Source: a virus. Taken from it: DNA of 25,011 nt. A program made the translations under genes and the position numbers. The notes under the pieces were generated by a model, which worked only from the letters and a program-made list of their open reading frames with translations, was not told where the DNA came from and did no database searches. The stretch lies in IMG/VR virus record IMGVR_UViG_3300023284_002989; one strand, 5' to 3'. Below, piece after piece: positions 1,915 to 24,230 of this stretch. Within the stretch, counting starts at the first letter, position 1. Each line of letters begins with the position of its first letter.

Positions 1915-2280
1915 ATGAGTAATTGGGGAAGTGTCGAACCATTGGTCGAGAAGAACCACGTCTGCAAGGGGCTGGAGGATGAGCCCTGGTTTCGCATCAT
2001 CCAAGACGACGGGTGCTACATGCTGCTGCTGCACGTCCCAGACGACCCGAAGTATCCGGACGGGTGGCGGAACACCGATTGGATCTTCCCCGAGGCGTTT
2101 GACGAGCTGGTGAAGCTGCCCAGACCACGCGGTGCGATATATGACATCACGCGTGACGGTCCCCTGCCCGCAGGTAAGGATCACCACATCGGGTCGTTGG
2201 TTGCGCAGCGGCATGCCGACAACGAAAAAGACCGAGCTGAGATCGAGCGACGGTTGAAAGCCGAGAGCGATGGGAACTGA
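1915..2280 (+). CDS. hypothetical protein
   Basis: ATG at 1915 is preceded by the RBS AAGGGAGATTACAAATG; 121 aa. Confidence 0.55.
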   Translation: MSNWGSVEPLVEKNHVCKGLEDEPWFRIIQDDGCYMLLLHVPDDPKYPDGWRNTDWIFPEAFDELVKLPRPRGAIYDITRDGPLPAGKDHHIGSLVAQRHADNEKDRAEIERRLKAESDGN

Positions 2281-2545
2281 AACTCTGAAACCAGAGGTTG
2301 TTGACGCTGTGTGCAAGAACTACAGGGATCCAGGTGCGCCCGAATGTGCGAAGGCTCCAGATCCGAAGTACACCATGCGGTTTGATGACATCGGAAAGCC
2401 CCCGATCTACTGGTGTTCGGTGTGTGGCCCGGAGGCCAGCGCAATGGACAAGGCTCTGAATCGGGCGTTTGCCGCTGGTGGGCAGAAGTTCGTCGACAAG
2501 TTCCAGAAGGCGATGGACGACCATCCGTGTAAACATGGGAACTGA
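2270..2545 (+). CDS. hypothetical protein with MGTET N-terminus
   Basis: ATGGGAACTGAAACT start motif; overlaps the upstream gene by 11 nt. Confidence 0.5.
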   Translation: MGTETLKPEVVDAVCKNYRDPGAPECAKAPDPKYTMRFDDIGKPPIYWCSVCGPEASAMDKALNRAFAAGGQKFVDKFQKAMDDHPCKHGN

Positions 2546-2750
2546 GACTGACCTACGAAAACATCCTGACGCGGTCAAGTGTGCCCATTGTGGTCGGGAG
2601 CTTGGGCATGTTGGCGGGTTCTGCCTGGGTCGGGATCTGTTGCCGATGTTCGAGCATCCAGAGGTTGTGCCCTTGAAGCCGCCCCGAATATTCTGTGGCC
2701 TGTGCGTTATCGTGCCGGGCTGGACAATACTGTTGGAGGAAATTCAATGA
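2535..2750 (+). CDS. small zinc-ribbon protein, MGTET N-terminus (CAHCG...CGLC)
   Basis: ATGGGAACTGAGACTGA start motif at 2535; in frame with track ORF 2469..2750. Confidence 0.5.
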   Translation: MGTETDLRKHPDAVKCAHCGRELGHVGGFCLGRDLLPMFEHPEVVPLKPPRIFCGLCVIVPGWTILLEEIQ

Positions 2751-3175
2751 ATAGTTGGTCGGATCTCGAAAAGAAGAACTTATCACCAGAGCAGATCGCA
2801 GAAGCCGAACGAGAAGCAACGGCTATCGCAGCTGAGATTGACAAGCTGTCGCGGAAACGGATTGCGGAGTCGATTGCGCATCACGAGGGGAAACTGACTG
2901 AGGCGCAGCAAGCTGGGGATGAGCTGAAGGCTGCCAGGCGAGAGGGTGCGATTTCTGCCCTGAGCTGGGTTCAGATGCTTGAGTATGAGCCTGAAGAATC
3001 ACGCAGGGGACTGGAAGAGCGTGTGTGCGACCGCGTGATGTTCGAGTGTCGACGGTCGGGTATCAGTGAAGGTAAAGAGAGGGTTCTCGTGGGGGCAGTG
3101 CGAAGTGCATTCCAGCCGGATCCCCCTGGACCTCCGAACCCTCCACTTCCTCCCCGCAGCATGCCTGTGGGCTGA
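2747..3175 (+). CDS. coiled-coil protein with Pro-rich C-terminus
   Basis: ATG at 2747 (ATGA overlap), preceded by GGAGGAAATTCA; 142 aa. Confidence 0.5.
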   Translation: MNSWSDLEKKNLSPEQIAEAEREATAIAAEIDKLSRKRIAESIAHHEGKLTEAQQAGDELKAARREGAISALSWVQMLEYEPEESRRGLEERVCDRVMFECRRSGISEGKERVLVGAVRSAFQPDPPGPPNPPLPPRSMPVG

Positions 3176-3381
3176 TGGGAACTGAGACTGATCAGGTACT
3201 GGTGCCTGTGTCGCGGTGCGATCATTGCCATTTCATGGACAAGCGGGAGGTGGAGGGAGACCAGGAGCATTGGATTTGCATGAAGGTCCCAATCTCAGGA
3301 GACGATGAAAGCACTGCTCTGATCGGCATTCGCAAGTGGGGGGACTACCCTGCGATCCCAGACTGGTGCCCGTTTCGGTGA
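3175..3381 (+). CDS. small zinc-ribbon protein, MGTET N-terminus (CDHCH...WICMKVP...WCPF)
   Basis: TGATG overlap; ATGGGAACTGAGACTGA start motif. Confidence 0.5.
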   Translation: MGTETDQVLVPVSRCDHCHFMDKREVEGDQEHWICMKVPISGDDESTALIGIRKWGDYPAIPDWCPFR

Positions 3382-3566
3382 CGCGGGCACAGAAATGGCA
3401 GCAGTGGATCGAGCAGTGGACCGAGCTGCATGAGTACCTGGCCTGGGTGATGAAGAGGGCTGCGTACTCGATTGAGGACAAGGATCCCAAAGAGATACGA
3501 GATCAGTGGATGGAGGAAATGCATGAGGCAGCTGCAGACTGGGATGAATTTCTGTCCCACAGGTGA
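3378..3566 (+). CDS. hypothetical Trp-rich protein
   Basis: GTG at 3378 (GTGA overlap) is preferred over the internal ATG at 3336; this is the last gene before the terminator. Confidence 0.4.
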   Translation: MTRAQKWQQWIEQWTELHEYLAWVMKRAAYSIEDKDPKEIRDQWMEEMHEAAADWDEFLSHR

Positions 3567-3574
3567 GAAAGAAA

Positions 3575-3599
3575 TTCCCACGGATGGGAATGTTTTTCC
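3575..3599 (+). terminator. intrinsic terminator: TTCCCA-cgga-TGGGAA hairpin followed by TGTTTTTCC, nested in a longer imperfect stem (3553-3612) that is also followed by a U-run
   Basis: Inverted repeat and T-run read directly; sits between two gene chains. Confidence 0.5.
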
Positions 3600-3610
3600 T
3601 GTGGGTGGGA

Positions 3611-3651
3611 CAGTTTTTCTCTTTCGATCCCACCTGCGGGTGTGGTAAGTT
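3611..3651 (+). promoter_or_regulatory. promoter module copy a: GTTTTTCTCTT / -35 TTTCGA (3622-3627) / 18 nt / TGG-TAAGTT -10 (3646-3651); first ATG at 3660
   Basis: One of five homologous copies (3611, 5389, 10186, 19184, 22809). Confidence 0.45.
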
Positions 3652-3659
3652 CTCTCTTG

Positions 3660-22795: not shown

Positions 22796-22808
22796 CCCTG
22801 TTGACTAC

Positions 22809-22844
22809 TTTTCTCTTGGCGTGTACGTGCCGATCTGATAGGTT
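22809..22844 (+). promoter_or_regulatory. promoter module copy e: CTTTTCTCTTGGCG (-35 at 22816-22821) / 17 nt / TAGGTT (22839-22844); ATG at 22854
   Basis: Homologous to the modules at 3611, 5389, 10186 and 19184. Confidence 0.4.
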
Positions 22845-22853
22845 CGGCTTGAC

Positions 22854-22931
22854 ATGTCAACGCAGAATTTTGAGATAGGTGATGTCGTGCGTCTGAAGTC
22901 TGTGGTCTCGCAGGAATCACAGGATCTGTGA
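22854..22931 (+). CDS. 25-aa leader ORF (MSTQNFEIGDVVRLKSVVSQESQDL)
   Basis: ATG 10 nt after the -10 hexamer; its stop overlaps the next ATG (TGATG). Confidence 0.3.
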   Translation: MSTQNFEIGDVVRLKSVVSQESQDL

Positions 22932-23149
22932 TGAAGTATTTCCTCGAATGGCTGCGTCAGACGGATGAGGACAAGCTGTTTGTTGTCGGCTTCGGATTTC
23001 TAATTACCTTGGCGCTTGTTCTGCTTGCAACAGGAATTACGTACCACACCTACCGTAACGCCAATTTCCTCACAGATTGTGTCGAAGCAGGCCACAAGCC
23101 TCTGGAATGCAAGCAGGCTCTCAGCAACAAAGACAAGGACGATGAATGA
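22931..23149 (+). CDS. small membrane protein (1 TM: LFVVGFGFLITLALVLLATGI)
   Basis: ATG at 22931 (GTG at 22928 is an alternative). Confidence 0.5.
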   Translation: MKYFLEWLRQTDEDKLFVVGFGFLITLALVLLATGITYHTYRNANFLTDCVEAGHKPLECKQALSNKDKDDE

Positions 23150-23319
23150 CGGAAGAGTGGGCGAAGGCGATTCGCAAGATATCGAAAATGTCTGACCAAC
23201 AGAAGGAAGACCTGGCCAGGAAGTTTGAGATCGCCACCACAACAGTTTTCAAGTGGGTACGTGGTACGGCCACTCCACATCGCAATATACAGAAACAGAT
23301 ACTGAGGGAACTGGAATGA
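23146..23319 (+). CDS. Xre/Cro-type helix-turn-helix protein (57 aa: ...LARKFEIATTTVFKWVRGTATPH...)
   Basis: ATG at 23146 (ATGA overlap); below the ORF-track threshold; classic HTH pattern. Confidence 0.45.
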   Translation: MTEEWAKAIRKISKMSDQQKEDLARKFEIATTTVFKWVRGTATPHRNIQKQILRELE

Positions 23320-23519
23320 CTCGTCCTGCAGATCTTGTCAAACACGTCACCGAGTTCTTCGAGGGAGACGCGAAGACGGTTGACCTGTGGTTCACACTGC
23401 CCAACCCAATGTTGGGGCACATCTCTGCTGACAACATGCTGGAACTGGGGCGTGAGGACAAGTTGCGTCAGTTCATCGAGAATGCCGTCGAGGCAAGTCA
23501 ACCACCAGCGGGTCTGTGA
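23316..23519 (+). CDS. DUF2384-like (Xre/MbcA/ParS antitoxin C-terminal toxin-binding domain) protein: ...DLWFTLPNPMLGHISADNMLELGREDKL...
   Basis: ATG at 23316 (ATGA overlap); W-x-x-x-P-N-x-x-L-G motif. Confidence 0.4.
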   Translation: MTRPADLVKHVTEFFEGDAKTVDLWFTLPNPMLGHISADNMLELGREDKLRQFIENAVEASQPPAGL

Positions 23520-23746
23520 TGCCTGAGAACGTGGAGTACGCACTTCGACAATTGCTTCTCTCCTGCGATGGGTTGACGGTAACTCTCGACGGAATTGTTG
23601 AGATCCGTGCACTCGAAGCTGGTGAACGGTATGCAGTTTTCAACGGCAAGAAGGAACATCTATACAACAATGTCAACGAAGCAATTGTTCAGTGGGTCAT
23701 TTTGTGTCACCGCCATGACCCCGTCTTCTCAACACGTGTGAAATGA
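23519..23746 (+). CDS. hypothetical protein
   Basis: ATG at 23519 (TGATG overlap). Confidence 0.45.
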   Translation: MPENVEYALRQLLLSCDGLTVTLDGIVEIRALEAGERYAVFNGKKEHLYNNVNEAIVQWVILCHRHDPVFSTRVK

Positions 23747-23982
23747 CAAATACGGAGTACAACCAAGAGTTGTTGGATCTGTTTCCAGTGGGGTGTGTTA
23801 CGCGTTGTAACGATTCGTGCACTGCTCCGATAAAGATTCATGTGCGCAAGCACTATCTTCAAAATGGAAAGCACAAAATCAAGACGACAGTCATGTTGAC
23901 CAACGGAGTAGAGCGAGAAGATATCTGGAAGGCTGACTACTTTTACAGACACGTAGCACAACCTGTGATGTGTGACTTGTGA
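23743..23982 (+). CDS. hypothetical Cys-containing protein
   Basis: ATG at 23743 (ATGA overlap). Confidence 0.45.
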   Translation: MTNTEYNQELLDLFPVGCVTRCNDSCTAPIKIHVRKHYLQNGKHKIKTTVMLTNGVEREDIWKADYFYRHVAQPVMCDL

Positions 23983-24227
23983 CGGTCACAGTCACACAGA
24001 AGGACATCGACGACGGGTATGCACAGAGCATCACATCCTGTCCGATTGCTCTGTCGGTGAATCGTGTGTGCGATCAACGTGTGCCTTACGCGGTTGTCAA
24101 CCACGGGGAAGTGATGATAGGGGTGAATCACTATCCTCTTCCTGTGTTGGCCAAGAAATTCATCGTCGACTTCGATGCTGCAAAACCTGTAAAACCAATC
24201 GAATTTGAACTGGAAACTGAGGGCTGA
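23979..24227 (+). CDS. hypothetical protein, ends ...FELETEG
   Basis: GTG at 23979 (GTGA overlap); the 3' end GGAAACTGAGGGCTGAGAAATG resembles the 7896 start motif. Confidence 0.45.
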   Translation: MTVTVTQKDIDDGYAQSITSCPIALSVNRVCDQRVPYAVVNHGEVMIGVNHYPLPVLAKKFIVDFDAAKPVKPIEFELETEG

Positions 24228-24230
24228 GAA

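Follow-up and report, generated by a model that had tools for sequence, protein, structure and literature searches.

A recurrent gene-start motif in a phage-like metagenome contig, a putative genome-specific translation-start module

Several small genes of the IMG/VR virus record IMGVR_UViG_3300023284_002989 open with a near-identical string of 14–17 bases, ATG-GGA-ACT-GAG-ACT-GA, and this start-region motif is real and statistically solid. The window that we analysed is the entire 25,011-nt JGI metagenome contig, with a set of 73 curated genes, mostly of 60–130 codons. All credible genes lie on the + strand, and 44 of the 73 overlap their upstream neighbor (by 4 nt in 23 cases, 1 nt in 16, 11 nt in three and 17 nt in two); the contig is thus a phage-like array of small genes tightly coupled in translation. 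Nearly all of these genes are ORFans, except 7896–8135 (PHROG 1761/5120) and 11240–13939 (a major vault protein homologue), and neither capsid nor protease genes were found in the window.

We tentatively propose, with a confidence just short of even, that the motif is a putative genome-specific preferred translation-start module, consisting of the AUG and the first four or five codons and kept at the RNA level. It does not look like a signal of a new type but like the known tuning of early codons, taken to an extreme in this genome, together with some gene duplication. Such a module would serve genes that are almost all translationally coupled and on one strand; its bases would be selected for making initiation, or re-initiation, and early elongation efficient, in carriers mostly devoid of a good Shine-Dalgarno (SD) sequence, and also for closing the overlapping frame.

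Copies and statistics of the start motif

An earlier note on this DNA had described a core shared by eight gene starts, with coordinates that were all confirmed here, and had proposed scanning both strands for it. The scan found ACTGAGAC six times on the + strand and not once on the − strand, against 1.08 expected, and none of 100 shuffles reached six. In addition, the 10-mer ACTGAGACTG occurs four times (at 2541, 3181, 7902 and 16091), each time as codons 2–5 of an open reading frame (ORF) that fits the gene chain (starts 2535, 3175, 7896 and 16088). The shared core is therefore exact in four of the eight starts, and the remaining four are degenerate, 2270 being a close variant.

The five strict copies, on the + strand like all features listed below, are ATGGGAACTGAAACTCT at 2270..2286 (MGTETL, gene 2270–2545), ATGGGAACTGAGACTGA at both 2535..2551 (gene 2535–2750) and 3175..3191 (gene 3175–3381), each reading MGTETD, ATGGAAACTGAGACTGAGAA at 7896..7915 (METETEK, gene 7896–8135) and ATGACTGAGACTGA at 16088..16101 (MTETD, gene 16088–16348), which lacks the GGA or GAA codon. 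The 17-mer ATGGGAACTGAGACTGA is identical in 2535 and 3175, and 7896, which opens with ATGGAAACTGAGACTGA and is preceded by GGAG, is one base off. Weaker copies open genes 8140–8316 (GTGGAGACTGAGAAA, 8140..8154) and 3660–3896 (ATGTCTGAGACTGG, 3660..3673), a degenerate one (GTGGGAACTAAGACTGG, 6031..6047) opens gene 6031–6264, the paralogue of 3660, and an internal in-frame copy (ACTGAGACTC, 20485..20494) forms codons 19–21 of gene 20431–20820.

An unbiased test, which took in all k-mers found at +4..+24 of the 73 starts and compared them with gene bodies, placed CTGAGA, ACTGA and TGAGACTG on top, with P values from 1e-10 (10 observed vs 0.54 expected, 12 vs 0.91, and 5 genes vs 0.03, respectively). 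Indeed, CTGAGA occurs 24 times, in 10 cases no more than 18 nt from a start, and an 11-mer is found at four gene starts where about 1e-4 would be expected. The same test applied to a control contig (L018, from a related phage that also encodes a major vault protein) gave no comparable signal, and no two L018 genes have more than 5 bases in common after the ATG. In the window, the signal is locked to the first few codons, and the 5′ edge of the motif is exactly the ATG in all copies. A restriction or Chi-like DNA site was set aside on these grounds, since a fixed distance to the ATG and a fixed frame point to translation instead. Note that scans of the whole collections with ATGGRAACTGAGACTGA gave 15 single matches in IMG/VR and at least 120 in metagenomes, which is about the number expected by chance, and none of them was related to the window.

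Constraint on nucleotides and on peptide

Within the strict copies, threonine is written ACT in 10 of 10 cases and glycine GGA in 3 of 3, whereas these codons account for 17% and 18% of synonymous usage in gene bodies. Synonymous choice at gene starts differs from that of the bodies beyond the motif as well: in codons 2–8 of the non-motif genes, ACT makes up 43% of threonine codons and GGA 38% of glycine codons. This start-proximal preference, being contig-wide, makes the codon uniformity of the motif less surprising but does not remove the surprise.

The strict motif is the core of a wider signature, an in-frame nCT-GAG-A at codons 2–5, which is 25-fold enriched: of the 292 positions at codons 2–5, 9 (in 8 genes) carry nCT-GAG-Ann, as do 9 of the 7079 positions in gene bodies (P = 7.6e-9). 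Besides 3660 and 16088, this class includes ATGGCTGAGAAA at 11240..11251, the start of the major vault protein homologue, and ATGCCTGAGAAC at 23519..23530. The first base of the signature is T at 3660, G at 11240, A at 16088 and C at 23519, so that residue 2 varies (Ser, Ala, Thr and Pro) while CTGAGA is held at +5..+10. Moreover, of the 11 N-terminal occurrences of the matching peptide, 10 are coded as nCT-GAG-Ann, but only 9 of the 44 in gene bodies are (P = 2.8e-5). As an internal control, the four genes opening with the twin-arginine-type MKRR[ST][VI]L vary freely in their synonymous codons.

The invariant ACT and the retention of CTGAGA despite changes of residue 2 indicate a constraint at the nucleotide level. 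The claim of the earlier note that selection does not act on the peptide alone is therefore upheld; peptide and nucleotides both contribute, and the nucleotide signal is clear. The same note had based this claim on conservation across different reading contexts, and that part fails: the reading frame is the same for all six ACTGAGAC, which encode Thr-Glu-Thr.

Selection on a peptide tag, M-(G/E)-T-E-T-(D/E), which would act in capsid targeting, processing or stability after removal of the methionine and would leave the codons as a side effect of the N-terminal preference, appears very improbable to us. N-termini show an approximately 6-fold excess of peptides of the class [SATP]-E-[TKN..] (11 of 292 vs 44 of 7079 positions), and starts rich in threonine and glutamate are also written in other codons (23146 MTEEW, 23743 MTNTEY and 19629 MGTTEE). 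AlphaFold models the 3660 protein (pLDDT 85.6) with its N-terminal eight residues, as well as its C-terminal tail, outside the fold, as a tag might be. The internal proteins of T4 provide a precedent for a leader on unrelated proteins, their capsid targeting sequence being about 10 residues long and ending at a prohead-protease site. The contig leader is likewise common to otherwise unrelated small phage proteins, but it covers 5–6 residues, has no protease-type site and is conserved at the codon level. A tag would account neither for the codon invariance nor for the constant CTGAGA, nor for the same bases at a gene end ahead of an ATG (24212); its 5–6 acidic residues show no recognizable cleavage or sorting consensus, and the twin-arginine-type N-termini display the very synonymous variation that is expected of peptide-level conservation. 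Two specific peptide signals were also rejected: N-myristoylation, because the consensus (PROSITE PS00008) fails at position 6 and the gene organization is prokaryotic, and a phiKZ-type or T4-type protease site, because a 4-residue propeptide makes no sense.

Translation, duplication and recombination as sources of the motif

The nearest known phenomenon is the early-codon bias, or ‘short translational ramp’. In highly expressed genes, Escherichia coli favors ACU at codons 3–4 and GCU at codon 2, and Bacillus subtilis favors GGA at codon 4 (PMC1397820), while protein yield depends strongly on codons 3–5, by way of the amino acids as well as the nucleotides (PMC6920384). The contig motif resembles this bias in its position (codons 2–5), in its use of codons that are rare elsewhere and in the presence of ACU, GCU and GGA among the published favorites (PMC1397820). 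It differs in being condensed to an identical 14–17-nt string in several genes, including the tandem ACTGAG-ACTGAN, and in that no reduced mRNA folding was detected in the motif genes. In addition, SD pairing amounts to −3.0 kcal/mol or weaker in four of the five strict copies, compared with a median of −5.8 kcal/mol in other genes.

Several observations weigh against a translation-start module. When the nine genes of the wider class are taken together, the trend toward weaker SD pairing does not reach significance (P = 0.16), and mRNA folding energy does not differ significantly between motif genes and other genes, either over +1..+36 (median −3.0 vs −4.8 kcal/mol, P = 0.18) or over −20..+20 (P = 0.51). 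A general start-proximal codon bias does not by itself predict 14–17 identical bases, and the strict identity still has a probability of about 1e-5 under the observed N-terminal codon frequencies. The comparison of synonymous sites with orthologues covers one weak copy (3660), through a relative of 793 nt. Finally, paralogy may link three of the five strict copies, and the independent events would then be few.

If the module did raise or gate translation, it would illustrate, in a small natural case, the amount of information that a virus with genes linked by overlapping stops and starts can place in the first five codons, and it could be used as a portable expression tag. For the annotation of dark-matter phages, recurrent boundary strings of this kind help to fix start codons and reveal coupled genes. 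The finding mostly illustrates, on one contig, known principles, namely early-codon bias, dual coding at overlaps and small-gene duplication.

An RNA structure at the motif, which the earlier note had suggested looking for, was not found: six motif regions were folded and share no structure. The motif and its surroundings are also free of hairpins, sigma-70 promoters and terminators are not in excess there, and no Rfam family was found at the motif, one transfer RNA (tRNA) being the sole Rfam match in the window. A translational operator, in which an RNA-binding protein of phage or host, a nuclease or a small RNA would bind the stretch from the AUG to +17 and co-regulate the genes, in the manner of T4 RegA or of small RNAs that act inside the first five codons, is hardly probable in our judgment. 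We are just as skeptical of its more specific form, in which the 14–17 bases from the AUG on would be a phage-specific post-AUG operator or enhancer, read by some feature of the host ribosome or by a phage-encoded factor, and would switch a defined set of small, mostly SD-less genes on or off. If true, it would amount to a regulon whose defining sequence lies in the first five codons instead of a promoter or 5′ leader. Nucleotide conservation from the AUG on in unrelated mRNAs, the strict strand specificity and the independence from RNA structure would fit an operator. However, the 25-kb window holds no antisense copy of the motif and no recognizable RNA-binding regulator (all tested proteins are without Pfam or PHROG function), Rfam offers nothing besides the tRNA, the motif shifts by one codon among copies and its genes have no obvious common theme. 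Note that GGAACTGAGAC, at 2538–2548 and 3178–3188, is identical over 11 nt, in the same sense, to the conserved stretch TGGAACTGAGACACGG of E. coli 16S rRNA. As regards downstream-box pairing, this was the only relation to 16S rRNA that was seen, and a same-sense identity is unable to pair; mimicry of 16S rRNA was dropped, the match being probably a coincidence.

Overlapping frames impose a constraint of their own. In the −1 frame, the motif string contains two TGA triplets. At each of the three 11-nt overlaps (2270, 2535 and 9283), the junction reads ATGG(GA/CG)ACTGA, with its TGA serving as the stop of the upstream gene: TGA 2278–2280 ends 1915–2280, TGA 2543–2545 ends 2270–2545, and the TGA of ATGGCGACTGA (9283..9293, MATD) ends 9087–9293. 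Each base of these overlaps is thus constrained in two frames and, at 2270 and 2535, a base in third codon position for the downstream gene falls in first position in the upstream frame. In contrast to the usual ATGA and TGATG overlaps, which need no further sequence, the 11-nt overlap of the contig is fixed in sequence; and the motif string is also present where no genes overlap in this way, as 3175 (where the upstream stop overlaps the ATG in a TGATG), 7896 and 16088 carry it without an overlapping upstream frame. Off-frame stops are in fact frequent at gene starts in general: a −1-frame stop falls among the first 4 codons in 30% of genes, compared with 13% for positions in gene bodies (P = 1.5e-4), and early +1-frame stops are found at 52% of gene starts and 12% in bodies. 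This enrichment in both alternative frames agrees with the selection on early off-frame stops that has been argued for elsewhere, together with the fourth-site A and ‘ambush’ ideas (PMC5850271).

The earlier note had called the carriers otherwise unrelated, and had named paralogous N-termini as the finding that would reduce the motif to gene duplication. This description holds in part. The products of 3660 and 6031 are paralogues with 51% identity, and 2270, 2535 and 3175, all within 1 kb, have in common their cysteine spacing and a KPPxx[WF]CxxC box; their similarity is not significant when they are aligned without the N-terminus (z below 3), and they are probably old, distant duplicates. Beyond the 3660/6031 pair, the gene bodies of the carriers show no significant similarity, and 16088 and 8140 resemble no other carrier. 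As for 7896–8135, its product belongs to an unrelated and widespread family: homologues occur in 337 phage records, and 4303 representatives reach an E-value of 1e-3 or better. The alignments begin at residue 8–15, the N-terminal extensions of the homologues differ in length and sequence, and the METETE prefix was absent from all 30 N-termini that we inspected; the motif is thus an N-terminal extension on the 7896 product. Of the eight starts, five are thus true or plausible paralogues; 7896 is not one, and for 16088 and 8140 no paralogy could be detected. Similarity past the motif, which would be expected in all carriers, is found for 3660/6031 and not for 7896, 16088 and 8140, which suggests that the motif is not entirely a matter of duplication.

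Inheritance alone, in which the motif would be the leftover 5′ ends of duplicates, fixed by the two-frame constraint and without function beyond coding, and 7896 and 16088 would be chance matches aided by codon bias, seems unlikely to us, if less so than a tag or an operator. It is consistent with the clustered cysteine-rich genes and the clear 3660/6031 paralogy, with the dual-frame constraint on codon positions at 2270 and 2535, and with other local junction repeats (GTAGCTCGATGGCAA twice and TTGCACAAATGA four times). It is at odds with the exact ACTGAGACTGA that 3175, 7896 and 16088 keep in the absence of an overlapping upstream frame, with the unrelated family of 7896, with the 11-mer at four starts and with the wider nCT-GAG-A enrichment, which spans unrelated genes including the vault protein homologue. 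In the translation-start reading that we favor, duplication would have its place: the 17-mers at 2270, 2535 and 3175 would stem from duplication of one small cysteine-rich gene, the rest of the gene having diverged next to a junction frozen by double coding and the start constraint, whereas 7896 and 16088 may have reached the same sequence independently or taken it over in unconstrained N-terminal extensions.

Recombination was another idea of the earlier note. The 17-mer would then be a short homology for the swap or insertion of cassettes, as are the PeSL sequences of T4-type phages, a scenario to which we assign little likelihood. PeSL-mediated shuffling is a precedent (PMC2839356, PMC4122927), and the motif resembles PeSLs as a short conserved sequence exactly at the boundaries of small ORFans, in a plastic phage region with locally repeated junctions. 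However, PeSLs lie between genes and combine a sigma-70 promoter with a terminator hairpin, whereas the start motif lies inside coding sequence, has neither promoter nor stem-loop and begins exactly at the ATG in every copy; besides, 17 nt is short for homologous exchange.

A better likeness to PeSLs is offered by a separate element, D3, present in three copies (3574–3663, about 5350–5437 and about 19160–19232) and composed of a hairpin, the T-run GTTTTCTCTT, the conserved box TGCGGnGGTGGTAGGTT and then an ATG 6–8 nt on. From this composition, D3 looks like a terminator followed by a promoter, possibly giving leaderless or near-leaderless mRNAs. The sole relative of the window, a 793-nt ENA fragment (L019) with 88% identity, bears on this point: its D3 is conserved at 74 of 75 positions, and an extra gene of 45 amino acids is inserted at the T-run, flanked by D3 terminator T-runs and not by the motif. 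This is the only indel between the two sequences, hence one event, and it falls at D3, while the bases of the 3660 copy are identical in L019. The recombination-site idea is therefore not supported for the start motif. Note that a 13-mer, TGATGCCTGAGAA, is identical at two stop/start junctions (19148–19160 and 23517–23529) and that, at 19148, it opens a mere 10-codon ORF (MPEKSKNPWD) running into the D3 element.

Other searches for relatives gave nothing: exact-protein look-ups with three window proteins had no match, and searches for related loci based on the vault protein, in IMG/VR and the JGI metagenomes, found none. L018 and the huge phages LR756500 and LR756501 have no gene in common with the window apart from the vault gene, and the motif is absent from them.

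Gene-end motif and neighboring genes

The gene ends carry a motif of their own. Thirteen ORFs, against about 0.005 predicted by amino-acid composition, end in [ED][TVIA][ML][ED][LF]-stop (ETMEF, ETMEL, EVMEL and similar; consensus GAGACGATGGAGTTCTGA), with stops at 386, 1902, 3896, 4667, 6264, 6407, 8618, 9531, 9920, 10707, 15651, 18028 and 18246. This end motif varies synonymously (GAG/GAA, ACG/ACA, TTC/TTT and CTG/TTA) and, in TGATG junctions, embeds a GGAG 5 nt ahead of the next ATG. Its carriers comprise at least two kinds of protein, namely six SH3/Tudor-like beta-barrel paralogues and cysteine-rich proteins, and its peptide resembles a hydrophobic-x-hydrophobic C-terminal docking tail.

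The earlier note had placed the start core at gene ends as well. Two copies are indeed present. One is ACTGAGACGATGGAGTTCTGA at 9511..9531 (TETMEF-stop), the sole member of the end motif with ACTGAGAC. The other is GGAAACTGAGGGCTGAGAAATG at 24212..24233, at the end of gene 23979–24227 (LETEG-stop) and upstream of the next ATG; it is near-identical to GGAAACTGAGACTGAGAAAC at 7898–7917 and matches the start motif better than the end-motif members do. This position upstream of an ATG argues for a nucleotide preference associated with junctions and against an N-terminal tag. As regards the 13-member end motif, the shared core does not extend beyond the Glu-Thr codons GAG-AC; the end motif uses ACG or ACA and not ACT, and in no case does a start-motif gene directly follow an end-motif gene. 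A single origin of both motifs through an indel (ATGGAACTGTGA vs ATGGGAACTGA) was dropped as too speculative.

The six paralogues (3660–3896, 6031–6264, 10486–10707, 15421–15651, 17669–18028 and 18028–18246) have the pattern YPVGA...W.nG..n.W.A..V and a predicted SH3/Tudor-like beta-barrel. Their best fold matches, all weak, are the CPH domain of HECTD1, YorP of B. subtilis and PetP, and a single homologue beyond the contig was found among 5.8 billion proteins.

Amid the small phage-like genes, 11240–13939 encodes a full-length major vault protein homologue with shoulder and vault repeat domains. Its nearest homologue, at 47% identity, lies on the phage-like contig L018, and the copies of LR756500 and LR756501 are 34–35% identical to its product. 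Five proteins (starts 4971, 5432, 6410, 6761 and 10709) open with twin-arginine-type signal peptides, which read MKRR[ST][VI]LK..., or GRRAVLKG followed by an Ala/Val-rich stretch; five exported proteins are unusually many for a 25-kb phage segment.

Neighboring genes that are otherwise dissimilar seem to share junction sequences. GTAGCTCGATGGCAA is found at 7287–7305 and 7552–7570, and the junction TTG[CTA]ACAAATGA at 20809–20820, 21149–21160, 21373–21384 and 21633–21644, where it gives the C-termini ..LHK, ..LYK and ..LNK with ATGA overlaps. Finally, a tRNA-Ile with the anticodon AAT (22723–22797) lies inside the sole long gene-free gap of the contig (22195–22930); isoleucine tRNAs with A34 are unusual in bacteria and their phages.

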